Shown: positions 28,013 through 56,193, numbered from the stretch's first letter. The stretch: DNA of 56,193 bases from a virus (IMGVR_UViG_3300020198_001070:1-56193), one strand, 5' to 3'. A program made the numbers and translations. Notes: generated by a model from the letters alone, not told the origin.

Positions 28013-28025
28013 AAAGGAGAAAAAA

Positions 28026-36700: not shown

Positions 36701-36773
36701 AAATAATACAATATATGTGTGGGGTGCTCAAGGGAGACCCCACCTTTTTCTTGCTTATGAAAGGAGAATTAAA

Positions 36774-37211: not shown

Positions 37212-37218
37212 TTTTTAA

Positions 37219-37243
37219 TATGGGGAAGTCAGACTTCCCCATT
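37219..37243 (+). terminator. Hairpin after hsp20
   Basis: ATGGGGAAGTC-A-GACTTCCCCAT. Confidence 0.55.
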
Positions 37244-37262
37244 ATATCAGGAAAATATAATA

Positions 37263-40169: not shown

Positions 40170-40207
40170 AGGAGCGTGGTTAAGGCAACTTAACTAATGT
40201 AAATATT

Positions 40208-40996
40208 ATGAAACGAACAACCATAAGTTTAGTAGTAACATCGTTATTTGTTAGCCAAGTTGCATTAGCAACTAATACAGGACAAAATAACGTATATATA
40301 GAACAAGTTGGCAATGCTAATACTATCACGATTGACCAAATAGGTGGAACTAACAATGTAGGTGGAGTAACTACTACAACATTAACATATGGAAATGATA
40401 ATGTTATATCTGCATTCACCCCAACAGCGGCTAGTGCACTAAATTATGCAACTATAACAGGAAGTTCTAATATTGTTACTTTGAGTCATACTGGTGACAA
40501 CAACTGGGCACAGTACAATATCAACGGTGGAACTAATACCTATTCAAGTACAATTATTGGCAGTAGTAATAAAACAAAATTAACTATTGGAACTTCTGGC
40601 CAGAATGGTGCTAAAAGTGATAACATTATTACTGAAATAATTAATGGTGATTTAAACTATTTGATTCAAACACTAACAAAAGGAAGCATTAATAGTTATA
40701 ATGAAATGATAGGTAATAGCAATCAAATTACCACTCGTTTAACTAGCACATCAGGTGATGTTCATACAACGGTTACAGGAAGTAATAACTCATTGATAAA
40801 TGAACAAGATGATGGTGGAACAGGTCATCAATTAACACAGGAAATAACTGGTGGTTATAACTCTATTGTTACACAACAACAAGGAACAAATGATTCAGTT
40901 ATTAATATTAGCACATTAGGTGACCATAATAGTATTACTGTGCGTTCTACAAATTCATCTAGTATTGTTAATTCAAATATAGCTGTATCTAGATAA
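40208..40996 (+). CDS. Secreted curlin-repeat-like protein
   Basis: Signal peptide; N-x-x-x-x-x-Q-x-G-x-x-N type repeats (IEQVGNAN, QQQGTND). Confidence 0.7.
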   Translation: MKRTTISLVVTSLFVSQVALATNTGQNNVYIEQVGNANTITIDQIGGTNNVGGVTTTTLTYGNDNVISAFTPTAASALNYATITGSSNIVTLSHTGDNNWAQYNINGGTNTYSSTIIGSSNKTKLTIGTSGQNGAKSDNIITEIINGDLNYLIQTLTKGSINSYNEMIGNSNQITTRLTSTSGDVHTTVTGSNNSLINEQDDGGTGHQLTQEITGGYNSIVTQQQGTNDSVINISTLGDHNSITVRSTNSSSIVNSNIAVSR

Positions 40997-40997
40997 A

Positions 40998-42083
40998 ATG
41001 TTGTGGATATTACTTTTTTTATTACCTTTAACTTCCTATGCAGATATAGGTTCTGTGTCAGAAGTTAATGGTTCTGATTGTAATATAGAACGAAATAAAC
41101 AAAAATTATCTGGTATTAAAGGTTCTTCTATTGAATCAATGGATATCTATATAACAGGTGGTTGTGTTAGTAACATTACATTTAAAGATGATACAAAAGT
41201 TAAAATTAACGAAAATAGTAGACTACTGATTGATGATTTTGTATTTGATCCAAAACAAAGTGATGCTGGTAAATTAGCATTAAAGGTCGGTATGGGAACA
41301 GTAAGATATGCATCAGGTCAAATAGCAAAAGCAAATCCACAACAAGTGGGTATAAAAACCCCAACTGCTGCAATTGCTGTTCGTGGCACAGATTTCACTA
41401 TGACAGTTGACGAAGCTGGTCAAAGCTTAGTTATGTTGATCCCTAGCTGCAAAGATGAAGCCGACGTAAAACAATATGAATTACAAGAAAATATATGCAA
41501 AGTTGGTAAAATAGAAGTTGAAAATTCAGCTGGAAAAGTTGTGTTAGATAAAGCATTTGAAGCAACATACGTCCAAAGTGAAACAACGATGCCTAGTCCA
41601 CCAACAATTGTCAATACGGTTGAATCAAAAATTAATAATTCATTAATTCTTGCTAAACCAATTGAAGTGCAACGTGCAGTAAAGGAAGCTAATAAATCTC
41701 CAAAAGATAAAGAAATGGAGGAATTAGAAGCTGAAGCTGGAAGACGTTTAAGTGCACAAGTTAAGCAATCCCAAGATGAAATTGACCAAGCTCGTGTCAT
41801 AAGATTAATGGAGCTTGCTGGATTACTTGGATGTAATGCAATATCCAGTGTTTGTGTTTCATGGGATAAACCAGATGCTGAAATGCAATTAAAAGGAAAA
41901 GGAATAGCATTTAGATTTTCACCTGATAAGCATTATGCAGAAATTAAAACACAAGGATTTGATTCAAATACTAGCATATCCGTAATTCAAGATGATATTC
42001 CAGCATCAACAATTATAGGTTCAGGTGATCCAGGTGGTAATATTGTTAATATTAAACAAAATAGTGGTGTATTAAAAAAATGA
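40998..42083 (+). CDS. FecR-domain periplasmic protein
   Basis: ITFKDDTKV.INENSRL.ID, GTVRY.SG, KTPTAAIAVRGTDF. Confidence 0.8.
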   Translation: MLWILLFLLPLTSYADIGSVSEVNGSDCNIERNKQKLSGIKGSSIESMDIYITGGCVSNITFKDDTKVKINENSRLLIDDFVFDPKQSDAGKLALKVGMGTVRYASGQIAKANPQQVGIKTPTAAIAVRGTDFTMTVDEAGQSLVMLIPSCKDEADVKQYELQENICKVGKIEVENSAGKVVLDKAFEATYVQSETTMPSPPTIVNTVESKINNSLILAKPIEVQRAVKEANKSPKDKEMEELEAEAGRRLSAQVKQSQDEIDQARVIRLMELAGLLGCNAISSVCVSWDKPDAEMQLKGKGIAFRFSPDKHYAEIKTQGFDSNTSISVIQDDIPASTIIGSGDPGGNIVNIKQNSGVLKK

Positions 42084-43192
42084 TTAAATTAATAGTGTTA
42101 TTTCTAATGTCATTTTCAGTATTTGCTACTTCATTTACTGATATTAAATTTGGACAATCACAAATAGCTGATAGTCAGTGGAACGTAAGTGCTTGTATGT
42201 ATACATCCACATGTCAAATTTATAGTAAAGCACCAGGAACTGCATATAAAATACCGTGGACATCTGGTAGACTTAGCTGGGCAACTGGAGATTATGTTGC
42301 ATTCGTTGCAACAGGAAATACAGCAAACCCTTGGCAAGCAATACAATATAATAGTAGTGGCGTTCAAAAAGCAGTTATGGGAAATGGTCATATTATTAAT
42401 ATGGGCACCAATTACTTATTTTTTGTTGGATACGATAATAACACTGGTCAATTATTTTCACCAACAACAGGAATGAATAGTTCTGCAGGGGTAACTTGGA
42501 CTGGAACATTAAATCCATCAGTTTCACAACTTAATACTGCTGCATCTAGTTGGACAACAGCACCGTTGTCACCTGGACAAACATATACAGCTGTTTCTAG
42601 TTTATGTTGTGGTGGAAGTAGTTCATCATTTACAGCAAATACCACTAATACATCAAAAGTTAATACATTCATCACCAGAACATCTGGTGATGATAAAGTC
42701 ACAGTAGAACAAATTGGATCCACTAATAGTATTATTATAGACCAATCTGGTACACCCAATAATTACACAAAATATTATAGTAATGGTGATTATAATTCAA
42801 CTACTATTTCACAATCTTCGTCTAGTACATCTGCCACGAATTATACTGAACTTTCCTTGGTTGGTAGCAATAATAATATTTCATTAACACAACAAAGTTC
42901 TGGTGGTATAAAAAGTGCATTTGTTGATATTGCTAATAACAATAATTCAGTTACATTATTACAAAAAGATAATGGGAATCATTATGCTGATATCACATTA
43001 TCGGGTGGAAATAAAACAGTTGATGTATCACAACAGGGATCTGGAAGTCACCAAGCTAGTGTAACATTATCTGGTCAGCCTTCTTCATTGAATTTGATTC
43101 AGCGCGGAAGTTCTACACAATTTTATTCAATAAATTTCAATTGTGCAACATCAGGTGGGTGTGTCGCAATTCAAGTTCAACAAGGTCAATAA
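42080..43192 (+). CDS. Secreted protein with C-terminal curlin-like repeats
   Basis: Signal peptide; VEQIGSTN, DQSG..N, SQQGSG repeats. Confidence 0.7.
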   Translation: MIKLIVLFLMSFSVFATSFTDIKFGQSQIADSQWNVSACMYTSTCQIYSKAPGTAYKIPWTSGRLSWATGDYVAFVATGNTANPWQAIQYNSSGVQKAVMGNGHIINMGTNYLFFVGYDNNTGQLFSPTTGMNSSAGVTWTGTLNPSVSQLNTAASSWTTAPLSPGQTYTAVSSLCCGGSSSSFTANTTNTSKVNTFITRTSGDDKVTVEQIGSTNSIIIDQSGTPNNYTKYYSNGDYNSTTISQSSSSTSATNYTELSLVGSNNNISLTQQSSGGIKSAFVDIANNNNSVTLLQKDNGNHYADITLSGGNKTVDVSQQGSGSHQASVTLSGQPSSLNLIQRGSSTQFYSINFNCATSGGCVAIQVQQGQ

Positions 43193-43231
43193 TAGATAAA
43201 TACAATGCTAGACAACTTATAGGAGAATACT

Positions 43232-43306
43232 ATGATTTGGGGGATACCTACGTACAACGATATTAGATTGGGATTTGAAGTCACCTGTTATATCAGTAAT
43301 CGTTAG
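43232..43306 (+). CDS. pqqA: PQQ precursor peptide PqqA (24 aa), not in the ORF track
   Basis: AGGAG RBS at 43221; MIWGIPTYNDIRLGFEVTCYISNR matches the W-x-x-P-x(3)-D-x-R-x-G-F-E-V-T-x-Y-x-x-N-R PqqA pattern with ExxxY. Confidence 0.9.
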   Translation: MIWGIPTYNDIRLGFEVTCYISNR

Positions 43307-43347
43307 TTAAATGGTGCATTACTAGCACGTTTAACTATAAGGTTATT

Positions 43348-44220
43348 ATGACAGTCTTAATATTGACTAAACAAAAAGATTCAGATTATGAAACTACAAA
43401 ACTTTTAAACAGTTTTATTGAAAAAAATATTTCCGTCAAAATTTGTTATTTTAATAGATTTGATATTGTGATAAATCATGGTATTTTTTATGATGGTGAA
43501 CGGATAGATAACCCAAAAATAGTACTTGTGAGACTTGGTGCTGGCATTACTCGAGCAGAATTATCAGTGATACGTTTTTTTGAATTGATACAGATTCCGT
43601 GTTATAATACAAGTGATAGTATAAATCTAGTTCAAGATAAATTCCAAACAAGTGAAATATTGGCAGCAGTGAACATCGCTGTTCCACATACGATGGTTGT
43701 TAAAACGCCAGTTAGAAATAATATAGTAAAAGATACTATTGGATTTCCGTGCGTCCTTAAAGTAAATGTTGGTAGTTTTGGAGAAGGCGTATATTTGTGC
43801 CATTCTGAACAAGAGTTTTTGAATTTAATCGAATTCGTTGATGCAATACACAATGAAAAAACATTAATTGCTCAAGAATATTTAAGTGATAAACCAGGAA
43901 TGGATTTACGTGTATTCGTAGTTGGTGACAAAGTTATCGGTGCAATGAAAAGAATTGCCCCTAAAGGTGACTTTCGTGCTAATATAACACATGGTGGAAC
44001 TGGTGAAGAATTTAAAGTTTCAAAAGAAATAGAAGAAATTGCTCTTAAAACAGCAAAAGTTTTAGGTTTAACTATTGCAGGAATAGATCTACTATTTGAT
44101 GCCCGTGGGTTTAGGGTTTGTGAAGCAAATTCAAATCCAGGGTTTATTGGGTTTGACAAATATTGCAATACTGACATAGCAAATGAAATAACATCATTTA
44201 TTATTAGTAAAATTCAATGA
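43348..44220 (+). CDS. rimK: RimK-family ATP-grasp ligase
   Basis: DKFQT, GSFGEGV, QEY, DLRVFVVG, DFRANITHGG, AGIDLL, CEANSNPG. Confidence 0.88.
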   Translation: MTVLILTKQKDSDYETTKLLNSFIEKNISVKICYFNRFDIVINHGIFYDGERIDNPKIVLVRLGAGITRAELSVIRFFELIQIPCYNTSDSINLVQDKFQTSEILAAVNIAVPHTMVVKTPVRNNIVKDTIGFPCVLKVNVGSFGEGVYLCHSEQEFLNLIEFVDAIHNEKTLIAQEYLSDKPGMDLRVFVVGDKVIGAMKRIAPKGDFRANITHGGTGEEFKVSKEIEEIALKTAKVLGLTIAGIDLLFDARGFRVCEANSNPGFIGFDKYCNTDIANEITSFIISKIQ

Positions 44221-44221
44221 C

Positions 44222-46267
44222 ATGATTAAAAAAATAATTGTAAGTCCTTGGACGGCATTGTTAACATTATTGCTGGTTATCAGTGTTCGAATATCAGACC
44301 CTGTGTTTGTCGAAAGCATTAGGTTACGGTATTTTGATACGTTAATCACATCCAAACCTACCACAGAAAATAACATATTTACAGTTAATATTGATGAAGA
44401 ATCTATCAACCAATATGGACAATGGCCATTTAAACGTGATATATATGCAAACATAATACAAAATTTATACCAACATAATGCTGGATTAGTAGTATTTAAT
44501 GTATTAATGCCAGAAATAGACAGGCAGGGTGGTGATAACGTATTACAAGATGTATTATCATCATACCCAGTTATTCTACCAAATATACCATCTGATATTT
44601 CCAAAAATACCCCAAAAATACCGGGTTCAGCAGTATTAAATCCAGAATACTTAGATAGAGTTATACAATACCCAGGAATTATTGCAAATATTCCATCATT
44701 AGAAGATATTGCAGCCGGGGTCGGTACTGTTAATACATTACCGGAAATAGATGGTGTTAATCGACGGATACCATTGATAGTAACAGTCAACGACAAATTA
44801 TACCCAGCACTTAGTTTAGAAACATTACGTGTTGCGGCAGGTGATACGACATTTCAAGTAAAATTGAGTGAATTAGGTGTTGAAAAAATGCGTATACCCG
44901 CATTTGGTCCTATAACAACAGATAATTTAGGTAGAATATGGATAGATTGGAGTCAATCAGCGACCAGTATAAGTCTTTCCAATATTCCAAATGATTTGGG
45001 TGGGGCAATTGTGATAGTTGGTCCAACAGCTGCTGGAATAGGCAATCCTATACCAACAGCGAAAGGGGCAATTTTTCCACACGAAACACAAGCATCAGTA
45101 ATTGGTACTATGTTGAATAACGTAGTTATTCAACGACCTGATTACGCAGATGGTATGGAAATACTAAGTGTGTTACTAGCGGGGATGTTATTACTTGCAT
45201 TGACAAGATGGATTTATATTGGGTTACTATCAATTGTTATAGTATCTGTTGGTGCAGTTTTGGGTAGCAGGTATGTATTTTCACAGTATCTATACCTTAT
45301 CGATGTGACTTTTTTTATTAGTAGTATTGTGTTAACATCATTGCATGCATATGGTGTTAAATTTTTAAGTGAATTCTTCCAAAAACAGCAAATCAAAAAA
45401 CAATTCGGTTCATATGTAAGTCCGGTAATTGTTGAACGTTTACAAAAAAATCCTAATCTTATTAAATTGGGCGGCGAAGAAAAAATGCTGTCAGCAGTAA
45501 TGACAGATATGCGGAACTTCACGGGGTTAGGTGAAAAATATGGGTCTGATGTAGAAGGGTTTACTTCTATTATGAATGAATACATGACTACAATCAGTGT
45601 CCCGGTATTTGCAAATGATGGATGTTTAATTAAATTCATTGGTGATGCGTCTTTACATATTCATGGTGCACCATTAGATGATTCACGACACGCATACCAC
45701 GCGGTAAAAACTGCGATTGAAATGATTCAAGCAGTTGATGATTTTAATAAGCATTTGCATTCAATTGGAAAACCACCAGTTGGCATGGGGGCTGGTGTAA
45801 ATACTGGTAAAATTCTAGTAGGTAATATTGGCAGTTCTGGCAAAATGGGGTATGATGTATTAGGTGACCCAGTATCAGTAGCTAGTCGATTAGAAGGGCA
45901 AACAAAAAGTTATGGTGTATTATTATTAATTGGTCCAGATACATTTAATGATGTAAAAAATGATTTTCATTGCTTTGAACTAGATTGCATTGCTCTTAAA
46001 GGAAAATCTATTGGATTACATATCTATACACCATTGTTCAATAATGACAACTTTAACCAACCGGATGCAGAACGACATGCTTATATGATTGAAGCATACC
46101 GTGCGCAAGATTTTGACACTGCCGAAATAATGACGCGTAGTTTATTTGGTTGTTTTGGTGGTGAATTAGACCATTACTATGAATTATGGCTGGACAGAAT
46201 CAATATTATGAAAGAATTATCATTACCATCTGATTGGGATGGAATTTATCGAGCTACATCAAAATAA
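44222..46267 (+). CDS. CHASE2-domain membrane class III adenylate cyclase
   Basis: IDEESI..YGQWPF.R CHASE2, 3 TMs, MTDMRNFT, KFIGDA, YDVLGDPVSVASRLEG. Confidence 0.92.
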   Translation: MIKKIIVSPWTALLTLLLVISVRISDPVFVESIRLRYFDTLITSKPTTENNIFTVNIDEESINQYGQWPFKRDIYANIIQNLYQHNAGLVVFNVLMPEIDRQGGDNVLQDVLSSYPVILPNIPSDISKNTPKIPGSAVLNPEYLDRVIQYPGIIANIPSLEDIAAGVGTVNTLPEIDGVNRRIPLIVTVNDKLYPALSLETLRVAAGDTTFQVKLSELGVEKMRIPAFGPITTDNLGRIWIDWSQSATSISLSNIPNDLGGAIVIVGPTAAGIGNPIPTAKGAIFPHETQASVIGTMLNNVVIQRPDYADGMEILSVLLAGMLLLALTRWIYIGLLSIVIVSVGAVLGSRYVFSQYLYLIDVTFFISSIVLTSLHAYGVKFLSEFFQKQQIKKQFGSYVSPVIVERLQKNPNLIKLGGEEKMLSAVMTDMRNFTGLGEKYGSDVEGFTSIMNEYMTTISVPVFANDGCLIKFIGDASLHIHGAPLDDSRHAYHAVKTAIEMIQAVDDFNKHLHSIGKPPVGMGAGVNTGKILVGNIGSSGKMGYDVLGDPVSVASRLEGQTKSYGVLLLIGPDTFNDVKNDFHCFELDCIALKGKSIGLHIYTPLFNNDNFNQPDAERHAYMIEAYRAQDFDTAEIMTRSLFGCFGGELDHYYELWLDRINIMKELSLPSDWDGIYRATSK

Positions 46268-46432
46268 GGAACCCATGAAAAAAGAAATATGTCAACGACC
46301 GGTTATATGATAATGTCAGCTTGTTTAATGATAATAATTTTTGCAGTGACATTTATATGTTTTATACAAATAGTTTTCAGTAATATTTGGGATTGTGTAG
46401 TTGATACAAAATATCGGCTATTTCACAAATAA

Positions 46433-46516
46433 CGCTACACTTTTTGAACCACTGGTAGCGAATCAGTGGCCCAAAGGTAGTAGGCACCTGTTGCCACGTA
46501 ACAACGTACGGTCCTA
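46433..46516 (-). ncRNA. Candidate pseudoknotted RNA element
   Basis: Minus strand 12-bp stem TTTGGGCCACTG/CAGTGGTTCAAA; loop CGCTAC pairs with downstream GTAGCG. Confidence 0.45.
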
Positions 46517-47332
46517 GGCAAGTTCTTGAAGTTTGTCTTTGTACGAATCCAATTCTTGATATACCGATTTTAAAAATCTTCTATACGATTTTTCATATCC
46601 TGGTTCTGTTCGCCCACGCATCTTACTGTAATCATGCGTAGAACGGGATGCAATATTCTTTAAAAATATATTAATTCCTTGCAATTGTTCATCGGTTGGG
46701 AGTTTATATATTTTATTGATAAGTTCTACAGCGGCTTGTTGACCATATGCGGCAATTTCATCAGGTTGGGATTTGTAAATTTCACGAGCTTTAATTTCTT
46801 CATCGGTGGTAGCAAACTTGTCCTGAACCAATGCAGTAAAAAATTTCACTTTCTCCCGTTCTATATACCCATGTTTATATTCATACCGCTGACCTTGCTG
46901 CACCTGAAGTGCATGTGTTAACTCATGTAGAAAAATCATAGCCATTTTGTTAACAATAGCGGTTAACGCATTTTCAAAATCAGTATCACCGCTAAGTTGA
47001 TTGATTTTTATCGTTATTAGATTTGCTATCAATTTCGTTGTCATATTAATGGTGTTATTTTCTTCCAAATATGACCCAGTACCTTGTTTTAAATTCACAA
47101 ATCTAATATTAATGTCATTATTATAAGTAGTTTTAACAAATGCGGTCAACCCGGTTTTAATAGCAGAAGTAAATAAATTATTATATTTTGCTAAAAATTC
47201 AACCACCATAGGTTTTGGTAAGGTATCTTTTTTATTAAAAATCGGGGTAATTGCATCTAAAATTATAGAATTTACTTCTGGGGTTTTTTGGGATACCGAT
47301 ATTCGTTCACACAAACATTCTCGTATTCTCAT
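46514..47332 (-). CDS. HExxH metallopeptidase-like protein
   Basis: FLHELTHALQ...PDEIAAY. Confidence 0.65.
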   Translation of the reverse strand: MRIRECLCERISVSQKTPEVNSIILDAITPIFNKKDTLPKPMVVEFLAKYNNLFTSAIKTGLTAFVKTTYNNDINIRFVNLKQGTGSYLEENNTINMTTKLIANLITIKINQLSGDTDFENALTAIVNKMAMIFLHELTHALQVQQGQRYEYKHGYIEREKVKFFTALVQDKFATTDEEIKAREIYKSQPDEIAAYGQQAAVELINKIYKLPTDEQLQGINIFLKNIASRSTHDYSKMRGRTEPGYEKSYRRFLKSVYQELDSYKDKLQELA

Positions 47333-47347
47333 ACAATCACCATATTC

Positions 47348-48121
47348 TTAATAATCACTATTTTTCACCCAATTTGTCAAATTTTCCTGATACCTGTCGA
47401 TAGAGTGGTTAACAAAAAAATTAATATTTCCTTTTTTAATTCCGGTAAAAAATCCCCTAACTCTATCTTTAACAATTTGCCATGATGTCATCTGTCTGAC
47501 TTGCCCATAATGATTCATATAATGTAATTCACCATGATGTTTATATCGACCAATTGGGTTACGTGTTACGATATCAGCATTATTAACCCATCTATGGTGA
47601 GTTAACTCAATTCCGTACATTAACCCAACATAAGCACCATTACCAACCCGTGGGCTACCATACGTAAATAATGCCACTGGATTTGGCATGTCATATAACC
47701 GTTTACACCGGGTTGCAATTAATGTTGCCATTGCTGCACCTAAACTATGACCAGTTAAATATATGTCCTTATGCTTCCCATATTGTTTTAACTTGTTAGA
47801 AATATCACCCCAAATGTTATCAACACTTTGCTTGAATCCTTTATGAACTTTACCGAATCCGGAACTACTGGTGACTAACATAACTCTTAAATCTGCAATT
47901 ATATCAGAAAATTGAGTTGGTTGGGTGCCTCTACATACCACAACAACGTCATCATCATTAAATAGACAATACGCGTCACTTCCATTGACACTATAAAATT
48001 CTGAGTTAAACCCCAATTCTTTAAATAATGGGCCTGCAGTAGTCGGTGACTGATATGATATATTACTAAGTTTAGCAAATAATAAACTTTGCTCTTGAAA
48101 TGATAAATTCTTGATACACAT
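47348..48121 (-). CDS. Class 3 lipase
   Basis: VCRGT, VHKGF, LTGHSLGAA, TYGSPRVG, VNNADIV. Confidence 0.92.
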   Translation of the reverse strand: MCIKNLSFQEQSLLFAKLSNISYQSPTTAGPLFKELGFNSEFYSVNGSDAYCLFNDDDVVVVCRGTQPTQFSDIIADLRVMLVTSSSGFGKVHKGFKQSVDNIWGDISNKLKQYGKHKDIYLTGHSLGAAMATLIATRCKRLYDMPNPVALFTYGSPRVGNGAYVGLMYGIELTHHRWVNNADIVTRNPIGRYKHHGELHYMNHYGQVRQMTSWQIVKDRVRGFFTGIKKGNINFFVNHSIDRYQENLTNWVKNSDY

Positions 48122-48123
48122 GG

Positions 48124-48396
48124 TTATTCCTTTTTAAAATTATTATTTTTGGTATTGTCAACTTCTCTTATCTGTAAAACAGTATTCAATTTTGCGGTTA
48201 ATCGTAACAAATCATTATCACAACAACGAATTCTGTCAATGAGCGTAACCAATTCTTTACTTGCTTCTCCCAACACAGGATTAATCTCGTTTATCACAAA
48301 CGTCCATACATAATGAACCATTTTGAGCATATAAAAAGATGACACCATAGGAAACCCATAGTCGTTAATAAGTTCGGCTATTTCTGACATATTCAT
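48124..48396 (-). CDS. Small membrane protein, paralog 1
   Basis: YGFP plus TM plus LIDRIRCCDNDL coil. Confidence 0.7.
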   Translation of the reverse strand: MNMSEIAELINDYGFPMVSSFYMLKMVHYVWTFVINEINPVLGEASKELVTLIDRIRCCDNDLLRLTAKLNTVLQIREVDNTKNNNFKKE

Positions 48397-48416
48397 TTCT
48401 GTTTCCTGTTAAAAAG

Positions 48417-48701
48417 TCAATCGCGCCTCGAATCATGTTTTCCATCAGACCTGGCTATCCTATCCAAATCAGGTCTTAAACCAAGTACCGATGATATGGT
48501 TACATCTATTTTTATCAATTCATTTGACGCGGTTTTAACTCTATTTTCCAGGGCTACCACTATACTAGCCAATGTTCTTACCGCAACAATCACATCGTTT
48601 AATACAAACTTCAACGCGGTAAAAATAAAACTACCAAGTGCACCACACGCAATGATAGGAAAAATTGTGTCGGTAAATACTGATATCAATTCTTTGTTCA
48701 T
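48417..48701 (-). CDS. Small membrane protein, paralog 2
   Basis: IFPI plus TM plus LENRVKTASNEL coil. Confidence 0.7.
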   Translation of the reverse strand: MNKELISVFTDTIFPIIACGALGSFIFTALKFVLNDVIVAVRTLASIVVALENRVKTASNELIKIDVTISSVLGLRPDLDRIARSDGKHDSRRD

Positions 48702-48994
48702 GTGACGGCATTCATTACTTGCTGGACTTCATGATGTATCTTTTGCGGAAGCGGGGCCACCCCAAGTGAATCAGATACAAGTTTGTCAAGTTCAAGCACA
48801 TCAACATTCATTTGTCGTACCCGTCCATCCATTGACTTCATTAATCCAGTTAGTTTCTTAATTGATTTAACCACTGAATTAAGAACTAATGTTATTGCCT
48901 GTTGAATAAACCAGCCACACACTAACGCAAGCGTAATTGGAAAACCACATTTTTCAACAAGCATGAAAAAATCAGAACTAGCTATACCTTCCAT
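48698..48994 (-). CDS. Small membrane protein, paralog 3
   Basis: CGFPI plus TM plus MDGRVRQMNVDV coil. Confidence 0.7.
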   Translation of the reverse strand: MEGIASSDFFMLVEKCGFPITLALVCGWFIQQAITLVLNSVVKSIKKLTGLMKSMDGRVRQMNVDVLELDKLVSDSLGVAPLPQKIHHEVQQVMNAVT

Positions 48995-49281
48995 TATAAA
49001 TACCTACTCTTTAAAGTATTTATCACATTTTGTCAGTGTCAGTTACAAAATTGTTGTCAAGCTTACCAACATTACATAAATATTTATTAACACCAGTGTT
49101 ATTTGATGTATAATATATTCATTCTTGATCAACATTGAGATAAAACAAATGGGTAGAAATAACAAAATCACTGGAAACACAAGAGTCAAATCTCGCATTA
49201 AGAAGTATGTAAATTAATAAGTAAATACAGAGATTACCGTCACATCTAGTGACTTTTTTAAAATATAATATAGGTATAATT

Positions 49282-50109
49282 ATGAGTACAAATGAAGAAA
49301 ATGAAGATTTTAGCGTTTCTAATTCAGATGATGAAATTAATAGCTGTAATTTTTGGCAAAATACGCTAGTTGAAATGGGATTAGATAATATTACTGAAGA
49401 ATATGTAGATTTATCTAGCTATCTAGATCATTCAGATAACACTACAATTTTAGATTGGACCAACTGGGATGATTACCAATTATCATTTGATGATGATACA
49501 AATGGTGATGATGATGATTACCAATTATCATTTGATGATGATACAAATGGTGATGATGATTATCAATTATCATTTGATGATGATACAAATGGTGATGATG
49601 ATGATTACCAATTATCATTTGATGATGATACAAATGGTGATGATGATGATTACCAATTATCATTTGATGATGATACAATGTTAGATTGGACCAACTGGGA
49701 TGATTGCCAATTATCATTTGATGATGATACAAATGGTGATGATGATGATTACCAATTATCATTTGATGATGATACAATGTTAGATTGGACCAACTGGGAT
49801 GATTGCCAATTATCATTTGATGATGATACAAATGGTGATGATGCTGATTATCAATTATCATTTGATGCATTGATGGATTCAGAATCCGTAGAGACAGAGA
49901 CATTCACATTATTTAATTTTCAAGATTTTGGTTGGAATCAACTTGAAACTGACACCACAAATCACTGGTATTGTGACAATGTTGTAGTTGAACAATTCTT
50001 AATTGATGAACCGGACAATAGTATTGACCAATTTGAATTAGAATGTAATTTAATTCAAGATAATGACGGTGATGCATTGGCATTGATCGGTGTATTACCA
50101 TTCGTATAA
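49282..50109 (+). CDS. Extremely acidic repeat protein
   Basis: MSTNEE start; Asp-rich repeats; no Lys or Arg in the protein from this start. Confidence 0.6.
   Translation: MSTNEENEDFSVSNSDDEINSCNFWQNTLVEMGLDNITEEYVDLSSYLDHSDNTTILDWTNWDDYQLSFDDDTNGDDDDYQLSFDDDTNGDDDYQLSFDDDTNGDDDDYQLSFDDDTNGDDDDYQLSFDDDTMLDWTNWDDCQLSFDDDTNGDDDDYQLSFDDDTMLDWTNWDDCQLSFDDDTNGDDADYQLSFDALMDSESVETETFTLFNFQDFGWNQLETDTTNHWYCDNVVVEQFLIDEPDNSIDQFELECNLIQDNDGDALALIGVLPFV
49448..49867 (+). repeat. In-frame tandem array of two unit types (DDDYQLSFDDDTNG and MLDWTNWDDCQLSFDDDT)
   Basis: CAATTATCATTTGATG recurs nine times. Confidence 0.95.
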
Positions 50110-50229
50110 AGGAATCGTTGTAAGTTTATATGTAAGAAAATACAGAGATATATGGATTACTGTCACTAGACAAAAAACCGCCTCATCATCCGAGAATCGG
50201 CAATCTCTAGTGACTTTTTTTAAATAATG

Positions 50230-50495
50230 TAACTGTGAAGAATTAAAAGATTTGTTTAAAGAACAATATACAACAAGTGATACTGCAACAATAGAAAACG
50301 ATTTAATAAATCAAATATACCAAAAGGGTGGATTACGTGTGCTGAGTGGAGAGATTTTAGAAAAATAAATTAAACAGCGCATATGGAAGACATTGGTACA
50401 ATAATGGAGTAAAAAAATTATTATCTATATCCATCAGATAATAAAATCGCTGAAATGAATTTAGAAAAACGTAGACTCCATTTGAATGGATGATA
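50230..50495 (+). pseudogene. Possible decayed homing-endonuclease fragment
   Basis: Frame-broken NSAYGRHWYNNGVKK...YLYPSD...LEKRRL, like NUMOD-type C-termini. Confidence 0.3.
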
Positions 50496-50499
50496 TGGG

Positions 50500-50840
50500 T
50501 TTGTGAGAATTCGTTGAAGGTATTGTAATAGTCTTGGCGGACTCGGCTATCGTTATGCCGACATCTCCACCCCCCATCAAAAGTGTACTTAAATCTGAAA
50601 AAGATGACGTTTGGGGATAGTACACTTTTGATGGGGATGTAAGGATTCGACGTTGAGATGAAGGAATACTGGAGAATCATCAGATAAGATGTAAAAATTA
50701 AATAAAGTAAATGCAAAAGCAAATACAAAATTTGAATTCTACACTGTAGATGGCATCTTTGATGCCATTGCTGCCTAGTAAGTAGCAAGTTCCGGGGGTA
50801 GTGCCTTGTTATCAAATAACTAGTGGGGAGAAATCCCCAC
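50500..50840 (+). ncRNA. ssrA: Circularly permuted (two-piece) tmRNA; 5' start approximate
   Basis: Acceptor piece ...GAC-TCGGC-loop-GCCGA-CATCTCC-ACC (50540-50571) precedes GGGGATGTAAGGATTCGAC (50633); G3.U70 pair; tag AKANTKFEFYTVDGIFDAIAA then TAG TAA (50713-50781). Confidence 0.85.
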
Positions 50841-50859
50841 TTCATTTGCACCAATAATT

Positions 50860-50936
50860 GCGCTAGTAACCCATATGGCAAGGGTGACTGCCTCTAAAAC
50901 AGTATATAGCAGGTTCAAGTCCTGTCTAGCGCACCA
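50860..50936 (+). tRNA. tRNA with CUA anticodon (amber suppressor)
   Basis: GCGCTAG/CTAGCGC-ACCA, D stem ACCC/GGGT, loop CTCTAAA, T arm GCAGG-TTCAAGT-CCTGT. Confidence 0.8.
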
Positions 50937-50956
50937 TTCGATTATAGTACATATTC

Positions 50957-50985
50957 TTGACATAAAAAAATAATTGGAGTATAAT
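50957..50985 (+). promoter_or_regulatory. Sigma70 consensus promoter
   Basis: TTGACA-17 bp-TATAAT. Confidence 0.85.
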
Positions 50986-50991
50986 ACACAA

Positions 50992-51475
50992 TATTAGGCT
51001 CCATTATAGGCAACATAGGCAACCCCACTTCAGATAATACTTGCACTGGTAAGATGAATAAGTGCCCCGAGATACGGAATGTGCTTCGCGTAGAGGGAAA
51101 CAATTGTGCTGAAGCAATGACTCATTTGACTACCCACACCTCGTGTTGTGGATGATGATCGGATATGCCTTCATACAACCGATTTCGAATGTTTGAATAA
51201 TATTAAAAAAGGCTAAAGAAGGGAGAAAAACCCTACGGACATATATGCGCTGGTATGTATATATGCACCCGCCGTCAGAAAAAATACAGCACTTCGAGGT
51301 ACCGGCTGACCGCCTCTGTAATAGTGTAATACCAGTGTGAAGTCAACTCAGTTGAAAAAATCATTTGCCCCCTTGCGGGGCAAAATATGCTTGTAATCTA
51401 GTTGAATATATACATAATATTACTATTGATAATATGTGACGAACGACAGTGAGGAACAGGGGAATGTATTCCCCG
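50992..51475 (+). ncRNA. Candidate large structured ncRNA, about 480 nt (family unassigned)
   Basis: ORF-free, GC-enriched, own promoter, many local hairpins and long-range helices. Confidence 0.55.
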
Positions 51476-51494
51476 TTTAAGAATAAATATTATC

Positions 51495-52085
51495 ATGAAA
51501 ATTAATGAATTATCTGGATATAAAAATAATGATCTTTATACTAAAGCAAAAGAAATATTTACTGGTAATAAAGATCAGGATGTATCATTTCGTGAATGGA
51601 AAAACATAATGGATTATTATGGGTTCACACATCTTGGTTCTGGTTCATATGGATCTGCCTATGAACACCCCAGTTATCCTTGGGTGTTTAAGATATTTAA
51701 AGGTGATAAGTCATATTTAAAATATTTTAACTATGTTAAAAAAAATCAACATAACCCACATATTCCGAGAATAAAAGGTTCTTATATACGACTAGGCAAT
51801 GATGCTTATATTGTACGATTGGAAAAATTACAAAAAATATCAATGGATCAATATGAAAAAGTAGAGTATATAATTGATGTTTTTTCAAGTATGTTAGACA
51901 ACGATTCATCTAGTACTGAGATAACTCCAATGCAAGCACAATTGATTGACTCGTATCATGGGATATACGAGATTCTGGTAGCAATCAAATATATGTTTGG
52001 TGAATCCTATACAGACATTCATTATGATAATATCATGATGCGTGGTAATGTTCCTGTAATAATAGACCCCGTGGTAGACCAATGA
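51495..52085 (+). CDS. Protein-kinase-like (PKL/APH fold) enzyme
   Basis: LGSGSYGSAY, VFKI, DIHYDNIM, IIDP. Confidence 0.75.
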   Translation: MKINELSGYKNNDLYTKAKEIFTGNKDQDVSFREWKNIMDYYGFTHLGSGSYGSAYEHPSYPWVFKIFKGDKSYLKYFNYVKKNQHNPHIPRIKGSYIRLGNDAYIVRLEKLQKISMDQYEKVEYIIDVFSSMLDNDSSSTEITPMQAQLIDSYHGIYEILVAIKYMFGESYTDIHYDNIMMRGNVPVIIDPVVDQ

Positions 52086-52363
52086 AAGTACAACAAATAA
52101 TAGAAAACAAATTCAAACCAGCCGTCATTAATATTCATCTAGGTGGGTTTACCGGAACTAAAATTCCAGATGATCTTAAAAAATTTATAGCAATTCACAT
52201 TAAGCAATCTAAAAATGGGTCATACTATATAAATGAATATCCAGATTCATGGTATTCAAGAACATTTCAAGGTGATGGGCCATCTGATGGTATATATGAC
52301 TTCAAAACCTTTATGGATGTGTTAAAGCCATATTTTAGAGTTCAAAAAATTATTCAGCGATAA
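52082..52363 (+). CDS. Hypothetical protein
   Basis: Coupled to the kinase gene. Confidence 0.55.
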   Translation: MKVQQIIENKFKPAVINIHLGGFTGTKIPDDLKKFIAIHIKQSKNGSYYINEYPDSWYSRTFQGDGPSDGIYDFKTFMDVLKPYFRVQKIIQR

Positions 52364-52419
52364 AAGTAGACATTCCTGTTTTTCATGTTATAATTTTTTA
52401 AAAAATTTAAGGGTGTATT

Positions 52420-53229
52420 ATGCAAAAACCATTTTTAAAATGGGCTGGTGGTAAATCACGGCTAAGTGATAAAATTAATGAAGTACTACCATCGGGATCA
52501 CGATTAATTGAACCATTTGTTGGTTCTGGTGCAGTATTCATGAATACTGCATATGATGAATACCTATTAGCTGATACAAATGCAGATATAATACACTTAT
52601 ATAAATACCTACAAACAGAAGGTGAATATTTCATACAGTATTGTAAAACATTCTTCACAGCTTCTTATAATACAAAAAGCGAATATTTAACGAACAGAAG
52701 AATATTTAATACTACAACTGATACAAGATTAAAATCGGCATTATTCCTTTACCTTAACAGACATTGCTTTAACGGTCTATGTAGATACAATAATAAAGGT
52801 GAGTTTAATGTCCCATTTGGAAAATATGAAAATCCGTATTTTCCAGCAGAAGAAATGACAGCATTTTTTAATAAATCTAAAAGAGCAACCTTTATGCATG
52901 CAGATTTTAGATTATCATTGTCTAATGCAACAGTTGGTGATGTTGTTTATGCTGACCCACCATATGTTCCATTGACCAATACCGCATATTTCACAAGTTA
53001 CTCCATTGGTGGGTTTAGTATAAAAGATCAAACAGATTTACGTGATTTATCACTGCACCTTGCTGAACAAGATATCCCAGTCGTAATATCTAATCATAGT
53101 ACTGAATGGACATTGCAAAATTATAATGAAGCAACAATACATGAATTTGATGTTCAACGATTTATTTCTGCCAATGGTAGCAATAGGACTAAAGCAAAGG
53201 AATTATTGGCATTGTTTAAAAAACACTGA
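52420..53229 (+). CDS. dam: Dam-family DNA adenine methyltransferase
   Basis: FLKWAGGK, IEPFVGSGAV, FNGLCRYN..GEFNVPFG, YADPPY. Confidence 0.95.
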   Translation: MQKPFLKWAGGKSRLSDKINEVLPSGSRLIEPFVGSGAVFMNTAYDEYLLADTNADIIHLYKYLQTEGEYFIQYCKTFFTASYNTKSEYLTNRRIFNTTTDTRLKSALFLYLNRHCFNGLCRYNNKGEFNVPFGKYENPYFPAEEMTAFFNKSKRATFMHADFRLSLSNATVGDVVYADPPYVPLTNTAYFTSYSIGGFSIKDQTDLRDLSLHLAEQDIPVVISNHSTEWTLQNYNEATIHEFDVQRFISANGSNRTKAKELLALFKKH

Positions 53230-53299
53230 AAAATACATATATAATAACTATCTTTTATTTATAAAAAATTCAAAAGATAGTTAAAAACTTTTACATCAG

Positions 53300-53530
53300 T
53301 TGAACCAACTGGGTATATTAACGGATTACGATATGCAACCATTATTACCCACATTACAACTCACATCTATACAGGGCCGTCAACTGTATTGTGTGCATAT
53401 AGTATATCTAATTACAGACCCAATGATAAGGTTGGCTATCCAACGAAGAATTGAATTTATTACTGATATATGGCATCCAACACAGTTTTTAAGAATAACC
53501 AGACAACCATTGAAATATAAAACTAACTAG
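53300..53530 (+). CDS. Possible hypothetical protein
   Basis: ORF track only; weak start. Confidence 0.3.
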   Translation: MNQLGILTDYDMQPLLPTLQLTSIQGRQLYCVHIVYLITDPMIRLAIQRRIEFITDIWHPTQFLRITRQPLKYKTN

Positions 53531-53616
53531 AGTTCCTTTCCCGTCGGCGAGACTCGCCGTCTTAAATCCGATGGTGTAGTATTAAGACAATGTGTGCATA
53601 TCGCTGGGAACTCACC
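53530..53616 (+). ncRNA. Structured RNA with tRNA-like termini
   Basis: GAGTTCC/GGAACTC-ACC closing stem; internal CGGCGA/TCGCCG and GTCTTAA/TTAAGAC hairpins. Confidence 0.4.
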
Positions 53617-53648
53617 GCCTATGGTGTTTTAGAAAACAAACAATATCA

Positions 53649-53739
53649 CTTACGGTGGCTCTTGGTAGAGCAGGACGTCTTATACGCGGTTCGGGCAGAT
53701 AACCCCCAGGGCCAGGTTCGATTCCTAGCCGTAGGACCA
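53649..53739 (+). tRNA. tRNA-Ile(UAU) with long variable arm
   Basis: CTTACGG/CCGTAGG-ACCA, GCTC/GAGC D stem, loop CTTATAC, TTCGATT T loop. Confidence 0.7.
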
Positions 53740-53748
53740 AAAAAAAAT

Positions 53749-53777
53749 TTGACAACTTATAAAATAGTTGTTATACT
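53749..53777 (+). promoter_or_regulatory. Sigma70 promoter
   Basis: TTGACA-17 bp-TATACT. Confidence 0.75.
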
Positions 53778-53784
53778 ACACAAA

Positions 53785-53996
53785 TTAGCAATAGTGCTGG
53801 CTACGTAAAGAGTCAGATGCAAAAGGTAGATACAGGACTTTCGAAGCAAAGTTAGATATGTTATGATCACCCGCAAACTAATATCAAGTGCTCTTGAGGG
53901 CGGAAAGTAAATTAGTCTAATTAGTTAAGAAGGTTGATGGCTGGATTGATCACCAGTCGATAACATCTGAGAAAGCTGTTGGAACGCTACCAACTT
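53785..53996 (+). ncRNA. Candidate structured ncRNA heading a tRNA transcript
   Basis: TCAGATG/CATCTGA long-range stem enclosing several hairpins. Confidence 0.4.
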
Positions 53997-54007
53997 TACA
54001 CAATTTA

Positions 54008-54084
54008 GGACCTCAAGCTTAAATGGTATAAGCAACCGGCTCATAACCGGTAGACACAGAGTTCGAATCTCTGGGGGTTCACCA
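54008..54084 (+). tRNA. tRNA-CAU (Met or Ile2)
   Basis: ACCGG-CTCATAA-CCGGT anticodon arm, CAGAG-TTCGAAT-CTCTG, CCA. Confidence 0.88.
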
Positions 54085-54090
54085 AATAAT

Positions 54091-54166
54091 ATTCCTATGG
54101 AGAAGTGGTTATCTCATCACCCTTTCAAGGTGACTTCACGGGTTAGTTCCCCCCGTCGGGATACCA
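54091..54166 (+). tRNA. tRNA-Glu(UUC), aberrant T loop, possibly a pseudogene
   Basis: TCACC-CTTTCAA-GGTGA; T loop TTAGTTCC; ends CCA. Confidence 0.6.
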
Positions 54167-54291
54167 ATTTATTTTAAAATACACTATCAGTCACTTCAAT
54201 ATCACTGGCCAGAAGGGTATTGAACTTGAGGGCGAGAGACAGGAGGATGGCATAACCATTCGTCTTCCCTTGTTAGTGTATTTTAAATTAT

Positions 54292-54387
54292 GCTGTATTT
54301 CCAGTTGCGACGATCTCTCAGTTAAAAGCTGTCGAATTTCGTAAAGGGTAAAGGAAAGCTGAACCTTCTGGGTAGAATACAGCGCCA
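54292..54387 (+). ncRNA. Non-cloverleaf RNA with acceptor-like stem and CCA end
   Basis: GCTGTATT/AATACAGC-GCCA. Confidence 0.4.
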
Positions 54388-54391
54388 ATTT

Positions 54392-54455
54392 TAGGATACA
54401 TTCAGCAAATTTTATTACATGAGACTTTTAATCTTACCAGTAAAAACGTATCCTG
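54392..54455 (+). ncRNA. Short Y-RNA-like hairpin element
   Basis: TAGGATAC-ATTCAGCAA...AAAAC-GTATCCTG; same terminal architecture as 55365..55482. Confidence 0.45.
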
Positions 54456-54523
54456 TATAAATATTTTAGGAGAATAACAATGAAACGAAAGACAAAGTCA
54501 GAAAAAGAAGGCAAGAAAATTAT

Positions 54524-54587
54524 GGAACTGTAGCTCAAGTTGGTTAGAGCAATCGCCTTTAAAGCGATAGGTTATGGGATTCCACCA
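54524..54587 (+). pseudogene. Truncated tRNA with UUA (ochre-suppressor) anticodon
   Basis: Intact D arm and ATCGC-CTTTAAA-GCGAT arm; T loop and part of the 3' strand missing before TTCCACCA. Confidence 0.65.
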
Positions 54588-54771
54588 AAAATTATATAAA
54601 AATACATTCACGGTTAGGATACAGAGAAACTGGACGCAGGGGCTATCCGAAATAGTAGGCATACTTACCGAAATCTCTGAAACGAATGTATTCCTATATA
54701 ACTTTTGAAACATACAATTGGATGCTGTGAGGTTCAATTCCTTCTGATGGTGCCAATTTGAGATACTTTAT

Positions 54772-54999
54772 ATGACTTGTAATAAATGTAAAAATTGTAA
54801 TAAAAAATACAAAATTATTGGATATAAAGAGAAAAATCAACTTAGAAAAAAACTATTGACATTGGGACTAACACCTAAAATAATATTCGAAATAGTTAGA
54901 AAAGCACCACTTGGTGATCCAATAGAAATTCAAGTTCGTGGATTTATGTTGTCTATTAGACAAACAGAATTTGACTTACTGATTTTACAAGAAATGTAA
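54772..54999 (+). CDS. feoA: Ferrous iron transport protein FeoA
   Basis: RKKLLTLGLTP, VRKAPLGDPIEIQVRGFMLSIR. Confidence 0.9.
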   Translation: MTCNKCKNCNKKYKIIGYKEKNQLRKKLLTLGLTPKIIFEIVRKAPLGDPIEIQVRGFMLSIRQTEFDLLILQEM

Positions 55000-55364
55000 T
55001 ATATTGAATAATATACTGTTGTAGTGTAACAGCTTACATAGTAAGTGAAACATTCTATGACGACTATAGAGATTCGGTTAAAGTCCGATAACAGCTACCG
55101 ACATTACAAGTATGAATGAATTTTATATAACCGCAGCTGATTATGAAGTTTTCCAAGCACATAATGTGCGTGGAAATTAAAGAAATTCTACAATATAGAT
55201 ATGGGCAAGCGTGTTTAAATTATTTTTATCCAACTGTGGACAATGTCCACAGTTGACCCAGTGAGTGGTAGTAAAGCATCACCCACTGAACTAATTTGGT
55301 GTGAACATTCAATTAATAAAGCGAAACAACTGATTGAAGACCACATCAATATAATTTGACCAAA

Positions 55365-55482
55365 TAGGTTCTTTGCAGCAATAAATTTTTCTTACAATAA
55401 AAGAAAGGTCTGGGTTCGAGTCCCTGGGATAGAGTTGGTCACTATCATAGTTTAATCGGTAGAACAAAATAAACAGAACCTG
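55365..55482 (+). ncRNA. YrlA-like Y RNA (permuted tRNA-mimic domain)
   Basis: TAGGTTCT/AGAACCTG terminal stem; inside, T arm (GGG-TTCGAGT-CCC), closed stem GATAG/CTATC, then D arm TAGTTTAATCGGTAGAAC. Confidence 0.65.
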
Positions 55483-55494
55483 AAATTTTAAATA

Positions 55495-55570
55495 GCGAGA
55501 ACGTTCAAATGGTAGGATATCTGGGTTTGAACCCAGATAATCGTGACTAGAGTTCACGTTCCATTACCAC
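55495..55570 (+). pseudogene. Degenerate tRNA (Gln-UUG-like)
   Basis: D-arm-like GTTCAAATGGTAGGAT and TCTGGG-TTTGAA-CCCAGA; acceptor and T arm degraded. Confidence 0.35.
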
Positions 55571-56022
55571 TTTTAACAAGAGTATTATCATGGTATTAGA
55601 TACAGTAGTAAACGCAATTGGTGAATATAGAAATAACAAGGTAACAACCTTACAAGCTATACCAACGCATTTGAAATTGTACGTGAATAAATATTATGAG
55701 AAATCTGATAGGCATTTTGAAAGATTGATGGATATTTGTATCAACATACCATCCAATTTTACTATTTAAGTTATCGATGATACTATAAATATAAAGCAAG
55801 AAAAGGTCACATATACTTTAAGGTTTAGCCCCAATTTAACTGATGATGATTTTGAAGAATCAGAATTTGTGTTAAAATTGGTTAACAAAACACGTCGATG
55901 TGATTAATGAGGATGACTACCACAAACAAACCCGAAGCTTTCACGACGGTGAATTAAAATGGTTCGAATCCATTAGCTCCGAAAATTATCATTCTGTACA
56001 AAAAATTTTAAAAGGAAAAAAT

Positions 56023-56193
56023 ATGAAACAATTAGTAATGTTAGTAATAGTAGCGATGCTTGCTACTGGCTGTGCAACCAATTCAGATATCGAAAATCTG
56101 CAAACCCAAATTGATGGCCTGAAAACTTCTGTAGCACAAGCTTCTTCTGATGCGGCAAGCGCTCAGTCTGCTGCTGCCGATGCGAAAGCAGCT
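56023..56193 (+). CDS. Lpp/OprI-type alanine-zipper lipoprotein (truncated by the window end)
   Basis: AAGGA RBS; MKQLVMLVIVAMLATGC lipobox, then ATNSDIENLQTQIDGLK...AASAQSAAADAKAA. Confidence 0.8.
   Translation, partial: MKQLVMLVIVAMLATGCATNSDIENLQTQIDGLKTSVAQASSDAASAQSAAADAKAA

Follow-up and report, generated by a model that had tools for sequence, protein, structure and literature searches.

The window analysed here, that is, the whole stretch of DNA, is an IMG/VR record of 56,193 bases with ~34% G+C, for which CheckV gives a completeness of 15%; a phage of ~350 kb is therefore implied. Ahead of an ATG at 51495 lie, all on the plus strand, a permuted (two-piece) tmRNA at 50508-50778 (RF04321, 74.6 bits against a cut-off of 47), a tRNA gene with the anticodon CUA (an amber suppressor, labelled 'Pyl' by ARAGORN) at 50860-50936, and a tract free of open reading frames (ORFs) that starts with a sigma-70-type promoter at 50957-50985. 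A first-pass annotation of this DNA had described the tract as devoid of ORFs of 60 aa or more, and this holds: there are none in 50957-51494, the longest being one of 53 aa on the minus strand (50942-51103). The gene that follows, at 51495-52085, is kinase-like, its PHROG matches being protein kinases (E 1.9e-12).

Several other features of the record were noted. A 174-aa ORF at 50360-50881 (-), antisense over the tmRNA and tRNA genes, is almost certainly spurious. The CUA tRNA is also found in a relative (L244, 2488-2562), and part of the permuted tmRNA in the closest relative (G006). Stop codon usage in 63 long ORFs is TAG 4, TAA 43 and TGA 16; a recoding of the tract with TAG as Q was considered and rejected, as it opens merely a 73-aa minus-strand frame and is unsupported. 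Three further tRNA genes (Ile-UAU, Met-CAU and Glu-UUC) lie at 53649-54165 (+). The large subunit of ribonucleotide reductase appears to be divided between two ORFs, 20974-23094 and 23247-24329 (+), ~150 nt apart; each has a match in phrog_84, to its N-terminal part for the first ORF and to positions 489-795 for the second, and the first carries extra C-terminal sequence. An intron, an intein or an inserted homing endonuclease could account for the split. Other stretches of 540-905 nt with no ORF of 90 aa or more occur at 27121-28025, 36698-37262 and 4365-4905, and Rfam searches of these three at gathering scores gave no match.

Methods

Homologs were sought by scanning viral contigs for the invariant GGTACCGGNNNACCGCC, which gave at least 120 loci; nhmmer with window positions 51038-51345 confirmed 60 of the 120 matches listed at E up to 1e-3. 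From the matches listed, 54 distinct full-length homologs were aligned with the window using MAFFT to give alignment A1 (55 rows). An nhmmer profile of A1, in which the window is itself a row, matches the window once, at 51018-51457. The structure tested comprised 86 pairs in 21 helices, defined in window coordinates and counted on A1, with 500 shuffles and with slides of 1-3 columns as controls. The tail of the RNA and the tentative pseudoknot PK3 were read on the MAFFT alignment together with an anchored reading.

Five large records behind the loci (113-345 kb, one 345-kb record being 99% complete) were searched with the RF01718 model, which scored 89.9-120.3 bits in four of the five; the fifth gave 35.5 bits, at another place. 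Cultured phages gave no blastn match (distant mode) for window 50400-51600 or for the RNA of locus L008, and no megablast match for window 40000-56193. The pattern scan of genome contigs returned at least 120 loci, and among the matches listed all were chance occurrences, mostly in high-GC genomes; nhmmer on genome contigs gave three matches of ~30 nt only, over the motif. Sequencing runs listed for the phage amounted to 19 rows, all DNA, lake or freshwater by label and mostly with small shares.

Results

The first-pass annotation had left the RNA unassigned and suggested that it may be new. Rfam cmscan, a check it had itself proposed, overturns this for the 5' third of the RNA, where RF01718 (Polynucleobacter-1) matches at 51038-51194 (+), scoring 68.4 bits where the gathering threshold is 37 (E 1.8e-12), and the match spans model positions 1-141 of 141, that is, the entire model. 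No other Rfam family was found in the tract (cmscan of 50400-51600, E up to 1), and the GOLLD and ROOL covariance models matched neither the whole window at gathering scores nor 50400-51600 at E up to 1.

The source paper of the Polynucleobacter-1 motif is Weinberg et al. 2010 (PMC2864571), whose Table 1 rates the motif as 'probably' an RNA, 'probably' cis-regulatory and 'ambiguous' as a riboswitch, and gives its taxa as Burkholderiales and fresh water/estuary. In the part of the supplement available to us, the Stockholm alignment of 2010 has 16 rows, 11 of them of 274-304 nt; these long rows pass the end of the Rfam model with AAAGGCUAA, two hairpins, GCCGUCAG and CGAGGUACCGGCUGACCGCCUCUGUAAU, and a pseudoknot line pairs the long hairpin's loop with the 3' end (PMC2864571). 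The window carries the counterpart of this long-form 3' extension at 51207-51337, with AAAGGCUAA, two hairpins, GCCGUCAG, GAGGUACCGGCUGACCGCCUC and the loop-to-3'-end pairing, so that the ~300 nt of the 2010 alignment, in its accessible part, reach as far as window ~51337. Judged by sequence and predicted structure, the tract is a full-length, divergent member of the Polynucleobacter-1 family. Since the family is catalogued and the long form was already in the authors' 2010 data, the RNA is a known orphan. The functional label 'cis-reg: probably' is not a criterion of the Rfam family, and the trait on which it is based, a position upstream of a conserved gene, is absent here.

Conservation and covariation extend from ~51030 to a hairpin at 51460-51475 across the 54 homologs. 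In the structure tested, 84.5% of cells are paired, against 71.4 +/- 0.4% after shuffling (none of 500 shuffles reaching 84.5%) and 37-43% after sliding. Compensatory change occurs in 70 of the 86 pairs, against 52.3 shuffled and 31-38 slid, and the covariation score is 0.348, against 0.150 and 0.064-0.101; the covariation that the first-pass annotation had named as a check on its RNA is thus strong. The minimum free energy (MFE) comes to -124.7 kcal/mol (z = -1.52), a value that 7 of 100 shuffles match or better. Support for the predicted fold is comparative; energy by itself is weak evidence.

The strand can be read from the pairs themselves. Near-invariant G.U pairs occur in P6 (54 of 55 sequences at one pair) and in P9 (36 of 55), and as these would read C.A on the opposite strand, the RNA strand is plus. 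This bears on the possibility that the tract is a DNA element, such as a replication origin or a packaging or recombination site, with direct repeats serving as protein-binding iterons. Two direct repeats do lie ~50 bp apart in the tail described below, and the first-pass annotation had itself named an origin as the competing case. However, the pairing is strand-specific, with the near-invariant G.U pairs and compensatory changes just given; GC skew has no global turning point here; and the 8-mer of the repeats is not linked to intergenic sites elsewhere in the window. We consider a DNA element highly improbable, and the weakest of the rival readings because of the strand-specific pairing.

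Protein coding is likewise disfavoured. The invariant motif falls in any of the three reading frames, depending on the homolog, and the longest stop-free stretches of 55 homologs lie in differing frames and places; as frames are not kept, the RNA is non-coding. Readings as RNase P, a group I intron, a tmRNA-like RNA or a k-turn / box C/D RNA were also considered, and no defining motifs were seen by eye.

All helices of the core lie on the plus strand. The 5' domain (51038-51194, the RF01718 match) comprises S1 and P1-P6, and the helices of the Rfam model are kept in the homologs by compensatory change, with 99.3, 90.3 and 99.6% of cells paired in P1 (51043-51047/51061-51065), P2 (51074-51091) and P6 (51157-51184, ATCGG/CCGAT). 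S1 (51038-51040/51049-51051; 89.1% paired) forms an H-type knot together with P1, and P5 (CCACA/TGTGG) lies at 51134-51151. On A1, P3 (51103-51118) is 56% paired and P4 (51123-51128/51186-51191) 58%; these figures are low because the MAFFT register is off by one column relative to the window, as the mutual-information (MI) figures indicate for P4, whose partners in the MI table are Watson-Crick at 0.95-0.96. A conserved A-rich joiner of near-invariant columns (AAAGGCUAAAG, 51207-51218) follows the 5' domain and leads to P7 (51220-51223/51231-51234), which is 54% paired on the MAFFT alignment, with the MI pair 51223/51233 Watson-Crick at 0.93. P8 (51237-51238/51268-51269 and 51240-51248/51257-51265), with the stem CATATATGC/GTATATATG in the window, is 77.4% paired, and 11 of its 11 pairs show compensatory change. 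The 3' domain (51289-51327), with the invariant GGUACCGG...ACCGCC, holds P9 (51289-51293/51323-51327), P10 (51296-51299/51313-51316, GAGG/CCTC; 100% paired, two of four pairs compensatory) and P11 (51303-51305/51310-51312), the last uninformative either way because it is invariant. Extra hairpins appear to be tolerated at the site separating P10 from P9's 3' strand: insertions of ~15-110 nt occur there, at columns ~400-515 of A1, in seven homologs (L098, L082, L018, L115, L052, L027 and L041).

Covariation supports at least four predicted pseudoknots, namely PK0, S1/P1, PK1 and PK2. In PK0, UCAG at 51030-51033 (+) pairs with CUGA of the P3 loop at 51109-51112 (81.1% paired, compensatory change in all four pairs, mutual-information ranks 63 and 66). 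PK1 joins CUGGUAU of the P8 loop (51250-51256, +) to AUACCAG at 51329-51335, with 98.1% of cells paired and compensatory change in seven of seven pairs; it corresponds to SS_cons_1 in the accessible part of the 2010 alignment (PMC2864571). PK2 joins UCAG at 51275-51278 (+) to CUGA of the P11 loop at 51306-51309, and is 100% paired with compensatory change in three of four pairs (at one pair, UA in 33 and CG in 22). A further pairing, PK3, is tentative and was read by eye: AAGGC of the joiner (51209-51213, +) with GCCUU of the P6 loop (51167-51171), matched changes in loop and joiner being seen by eye in a few rows (ACCU/AGGU in L025 and L051, GCU/AGC in L105). Between the window and its closest relative among the matches listed (L092), compensatory changes occur in P5, P8, the tandem G.A hairpin and terminal hairpin described below, and PK1, where G-C is replaced by A-U.

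The six local hairpins listed by the first-pass annotation are all present and correspond to conserved elements: P5, P6, P8, P10, and, in the tail, hairpin B and the terminal hairpin (GGGGAAT/ATTCCCC). Its two long-range helices did not survive comparison. Both (CACTGGTA/TACCAGTG, 51044-51051 with 51330-51337; GTGCTG/CAGCAC, 51106-51111 with 51287-51292) have complementary strands in the window but show no conservation across the 55 sequences: 63.5% of cells are paired against 61.3% shuffled, and eight pairs are compensatory against 8.0 shuffled (341 of 500 shuffles reach eight). The first helix has eight pairs, three of which fail to form in 37, 46 and 43 of the 55 sequences. The conserved partner of TACCAGTG, which makes up the 3' strand of PK1, is the P8 loop at 51250-51256, not 51044-51051.

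Past the core, homologs share a tail in a fixed order: a box X hairpin, hairpin B, box Y in an unpaired stretch, a UUCG hairpin that is optional and missing from the window, a tandem G.A hairpin and a terminal hairpin. Box X (51344-51356, +) reads CAA-CUC-AGUUGAA and box Y (51394-51406, +) UAA-UCU-AGUUGAA, with CUC and UCU each present in 54 of 54 sequences. The 7-nt cores of the two boxes are identical within every one of the 54 sequences that have both, even as the core itself occurs in nine variants (R-N-W-U-R-A-W): AGAUAAU, GGAUAAU, GGAUGAU, AGAUGAU, GGAUGAA, AGAUGAA, GCAUAAU, GAAUGAU and, in the window, AGUUGAA. It follows that at least eight substitutions in one box have been mirrored in the other. 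At 10 variable positions, X and Y agree at 7.30, against 5.02 +/- 0.16 (maximum 5.80 in 2000) when Y is shuffled among sequences, a comparison that ignores kinship. The 1-3 bases upstream of the cores also tend to match between boxes.

Hairpin B (51364-51384, +; UUUGCCCC / GGGGCAAA, its stem given as TTTGCCCC/GGGGCAAA in the first-pass annotation) was listed for the minus strand in a signal scan. A hairpin lies between the boxes in 54 of 54 local folds, and 53-72% of hairpin B cells are paired on A1; variants of its stem include UUAGCCC/GGGCUAA, UUCUCCC/GGGAGAA and UUGACCC/GGGUCAA. The tandem G.A hairpin, GA-AC-GACA-GU-GA with a four-base loop (51440-51454, +; core 51441-51452), has the pairs 51440/51454 (UA 23, CG 15), 51443/51450 (GC 35, AU 7) and 51444/51449. 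A strict G.A pattern with an outer stem of at least three pairs is found in 44 of 54 sequences, the window not among them; little of the outer stem remains in the window or in L092. The last conserved element, the terminal hairpin GGGGAA-UGUA-UUCCCC (51460-51475, +), fails terminator criteria; a hairpin of 6-8 bp follows the G.A hairpin in all 44 sequences where it was located, with many different stems. The tail of the window is a diverged form: its box X lies within another small hairpin, and its G.A hairpin lacks the outer stem. Box X is unpaired within an enclosing stem in 21 of 54 local MFE folds. A switch between two alternative pairings of the stretch that follows box X was considered: forcing it to pair upstream (hairpin X) gives the more stable fold by >1 kcal/mol in 33 of 54 sequences, the two folds lie within 1 kcal/mol of each other in 18, and downstream pairing is the more stable in 3.

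Partners of the boxes were looked for by complementarity. In the 4-kb loci, 14-mers able to pair with both boxes were limited to the boxes' own antisense; TTCAACTRRR has three matches in the window against 1.26 expected, two of them antisense, and ATTATCCRRRT has four matches in one 99%-complete 345-kb genome against four in the control. Inside the RNA, 7-mer complements were limited to a weak, G.U-rich match to the invariant 3' strand of P4 in 20 of 54 sequences. Two other readings of the boxes were rejected. Read as a promoter or operator used across the genome, the motif YAGTTGAA is found at 15 places where 5.8 are expected, the other sites lying in coding DNA with no common context. As a mini-ORF (the core always holds U-R-A, like UAA/UGA), the distance to an upstream GUG is not in frame.

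These observations bear on a possible ribozyme or self-processing RNA, with a catalytic core and the two boxes as substrate or cleavage sites, cuts at which would release a ~50-nt piece bearing hairpin B. The size of the RNA and its number of pseudoknots are within the range of known ribozymes, and two identical sites, each with a fixed pyrimidine triplet before a purine, would suit one active site. All nine core variants begin R-N-W-U, which we take to resemble the cleavage preference of RNase E, and a host enzyme could also cut there. However, no known ribozyme family matches at E up to 1, and no internal sequence complementary to the boxes was found; a putative ribozyme or self-processing role therefore seems to us decidedly unlikely.

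The tract starts with a perfect promoter on the plus strand, TTGACA at 50957-50962 and TATAAT at 50980-50985 with a 17-nt spacer (12 of 12), as the first-pass annotation had reported. It is the only perfect one of eight promoter-like sites in 50300-51700, a count that is not above shuffles (6.4 +/- 2.2). In 35 tracts (the window and 34 loci) the best promoter scores are 12 in the window only, 10 in one, 9 in six, 8 in 24 and 7 in three. The closest relative among the matches listed, a 32-kb record outside this set with 74% identity over the RNA and downstream genes, has TAGACA-17-TATAAT (11 of 12) at the homologous position, with a different gene directly before it; the promoter is therefore conserved and the upstream neighbour is not. 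Among the 35 tracts and this relative (matches listed), these two alone have their own near-consensus promoter. The earlier description as a large structured RNA with its own consensus promoter thus stands, on the covariation and on a promoter kept in the same place.

The promoter predicts a start at ~50992 (+), and with the last conserved hairpin as its end, the predicted primary transcript would be 50992-51478 (+), ~487 nt; the conserved block runs from ~51018 to 51475. No plus-strand terminator-like site was found in 50300-51700, so read-through into the kinase-like gene at 51495 is possible. In the leader at 50994-51022, UAGGC occurs three times and AUAGGCAAC twice, and relatives have one AGGCAAA immediately past the stop of the upstream gene; the P6 loop GCCUU could pair with the UAGGC repeats in place of the joiner AAGGC. 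Between the last hairpin and the next gene lies AUAAAUA (51483-51489, +), 5 nt before the ATG and presumably akin to a T4-type late promoter core, which it resembles. It is conserved in L092, and 27 of 54 sequences have ATAAATA no more than 200 nt past box Y.

The genes around the RNA differ among relatives, whose carriers are phages of roughly 350 kb. Upstream, a GIY-YIG gene lies directly before the RNA on the same strand in 32 of 35 related loci with an upstream ORF (among the matches listed). The upstream proteins are of 141-150 aa, the 32 form one cluster with a median identity of 72%, and the four that were scanned match PF19835 (SegE-like GIY-YIG, E 5e-31 to 3e-35); at L047 the upstream gene is a PDDEXK nuclease, and at L027 and L059 unrelated genes. 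A tblastn search places the GIY-YIG gene in 498 phage records, most of them cyanophages, and gives no homolog in the window fragment; the mere 148 nt behind the gene in Methylophilales phage Melnitz (Kyanoviridae) leave no room for the RNA. With the RNA found without the nuclease (window, L027 and L059) and the nuclease without the RNA, the two look like neighbours, not a system. Downstream, 38 proteins fall into 21 unrelated clusters (among the matches listed), and the next gene is on the opposite strand in 17 of 37 loci; eight of these 17 form one cluster, the three scanned members of which are T4-type baseplate hub genes. A tRNA gene lies within ~2 kb of the RNA in none of 36 related loci (among the matches listed), so the tRNA/tmRNA neighbourhood is peculiar to the lineage of the window; in the closest relative the tmRNA and CUA-tRNA are ~3-4 kb from the RNA. 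The RNA is tied to no gene on either side.

This arrangement bears on a cis-acting role, in which the RNA would be a ~500-nt 5' leader controlling or stabilising the early kinase-like mRNA here, and a 3' UTR of the GIY-YIG mRNA in relatives. Such a role is close to the label of 2010 (cis-reg 'y' and switch '?' in Table 1, the relevant part of PMC2864571), and it would suit the lack of a plus-strand terminator from the promoter to the ATG at 51495, the kinase-like gene that the window and its closest relative (among the matches listed) share along with the RNA, and the same-strand upstream gene that the RNA abuts in 32 of 35 relatives. In those relatives, the RNA may be the co-transcribed 3' part of the GIY-YIG mRNA, there being no good promoter between. 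Against this role, the downstream genes are unrelated and often face the other way, and neither a terminator nor a platform masking a start site was found. AUAAAUA stands between the RNA and the next same-strand gene at many loci, which suggests that those genes have their own start, and the GIY-YIG gene occurs widely, in Melnitz with too little space behind it. The RNA having its own promoter-driven gene in this lineage argues against the original cis-regulatory label, and we regard a cis-acting role as rather unlikely.

Discussion

A plus-strand, non-coding, multiply knotted RNA of ~450-490 nt that is tied to no gene favours a stand-alone, trans-acting RNA. We think it reasonably probable that the tract is a stand-alone gene at ~50992-51478 (+), encoding a ~490-nt non-coding RNA of full-length Polynucleobacter-1 type that acts in trans and bears twin docking boxes. 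Host RNA polymerase would start at the promoter at 50957-50985, which in this phage would give early expression. The first ~300 nt would then fold into a compact core of nested helices P1-P11 with at least four loop-to-strand pairings, and the last ~140 nt into a hairpin tail displaying one 7-nt sequence twice, in X after CUC and in Y after UCU. The folded RNA would act in trans: its core would be a rigid body, and the twin boxes would offer a single partner two equivalent places to dock. This partner could be a dimeric protein or an RNA with complementary sequence, and would change in step with the boxes between phages.

A distinct large phage RNA machine with five loop-to-strand pairings, in which the core is a ribozyme or ribonucleoprotein body and the boxes are programmable recognition or cleavage sites re-set between phages, is quite unlikely in our estimation. 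To our knowledge, no bacterial or phage RNA described so far has such two-site specificity.

Polynucleobacter-1 has been an orphan since 2010, and it is carried by freshwater phages of ~350 kb. Rfam models only its first 141 positions; in the window and 54 relatives the functional unit is three times that length, with ribozyme-like knotting. New here are a divergent member that has tmRNA and tRNA genes as neighbours and its own perfect promoter, the counted support for PK0, S1 and PK2, and the finding that the twin cores are identical in 54 of 54 sequences. The twin boxes offer a concrete experimental handle.

Three known systems invite comparison. HEARO / omega RNAs are nuclease-associated guide RNAs of IscB and TnpB. 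The present RNA is similar in being structured, several hundred nucleotides long and placed beside a small nuclease gene in most relatives, and differs in that RNA and nuclease each occur alone. GOLLD and ROOL are large phage RNAs found near tRNA genes. The first-pass annotation had drawn an analogy with them, which holds for this phage, where a large, ornate, phage-borne RNA of ~490 nt adjoins tRNA genes; it fails across the family, for which tRNA vicinity is not a trait, and there is no Rfam match to either. The closest likeness is to the Polynucleobacter-1 RNAs of 2010, as given in the accessible parts of that source: the whole model, the 3' extension, the loop-to-3'-end pseudoknot and the freshwater habitat are shared. 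The RNA of the window differs from these in having its own consensus promoter and tRNA and tmRNA neighbours and in lacking a conserved downstream gene, and at 68 bits it is divergent, whereas its relatives score 90-120 bits. PK0, S1 and PK2 are extra here, being absent from the available structure lines of the 2010 alignment, and the conserved RNA is ~140 nt longer than in the accessible alignment by its twin boxes, hairpin B, G.A hairpin and terminal hairpin.
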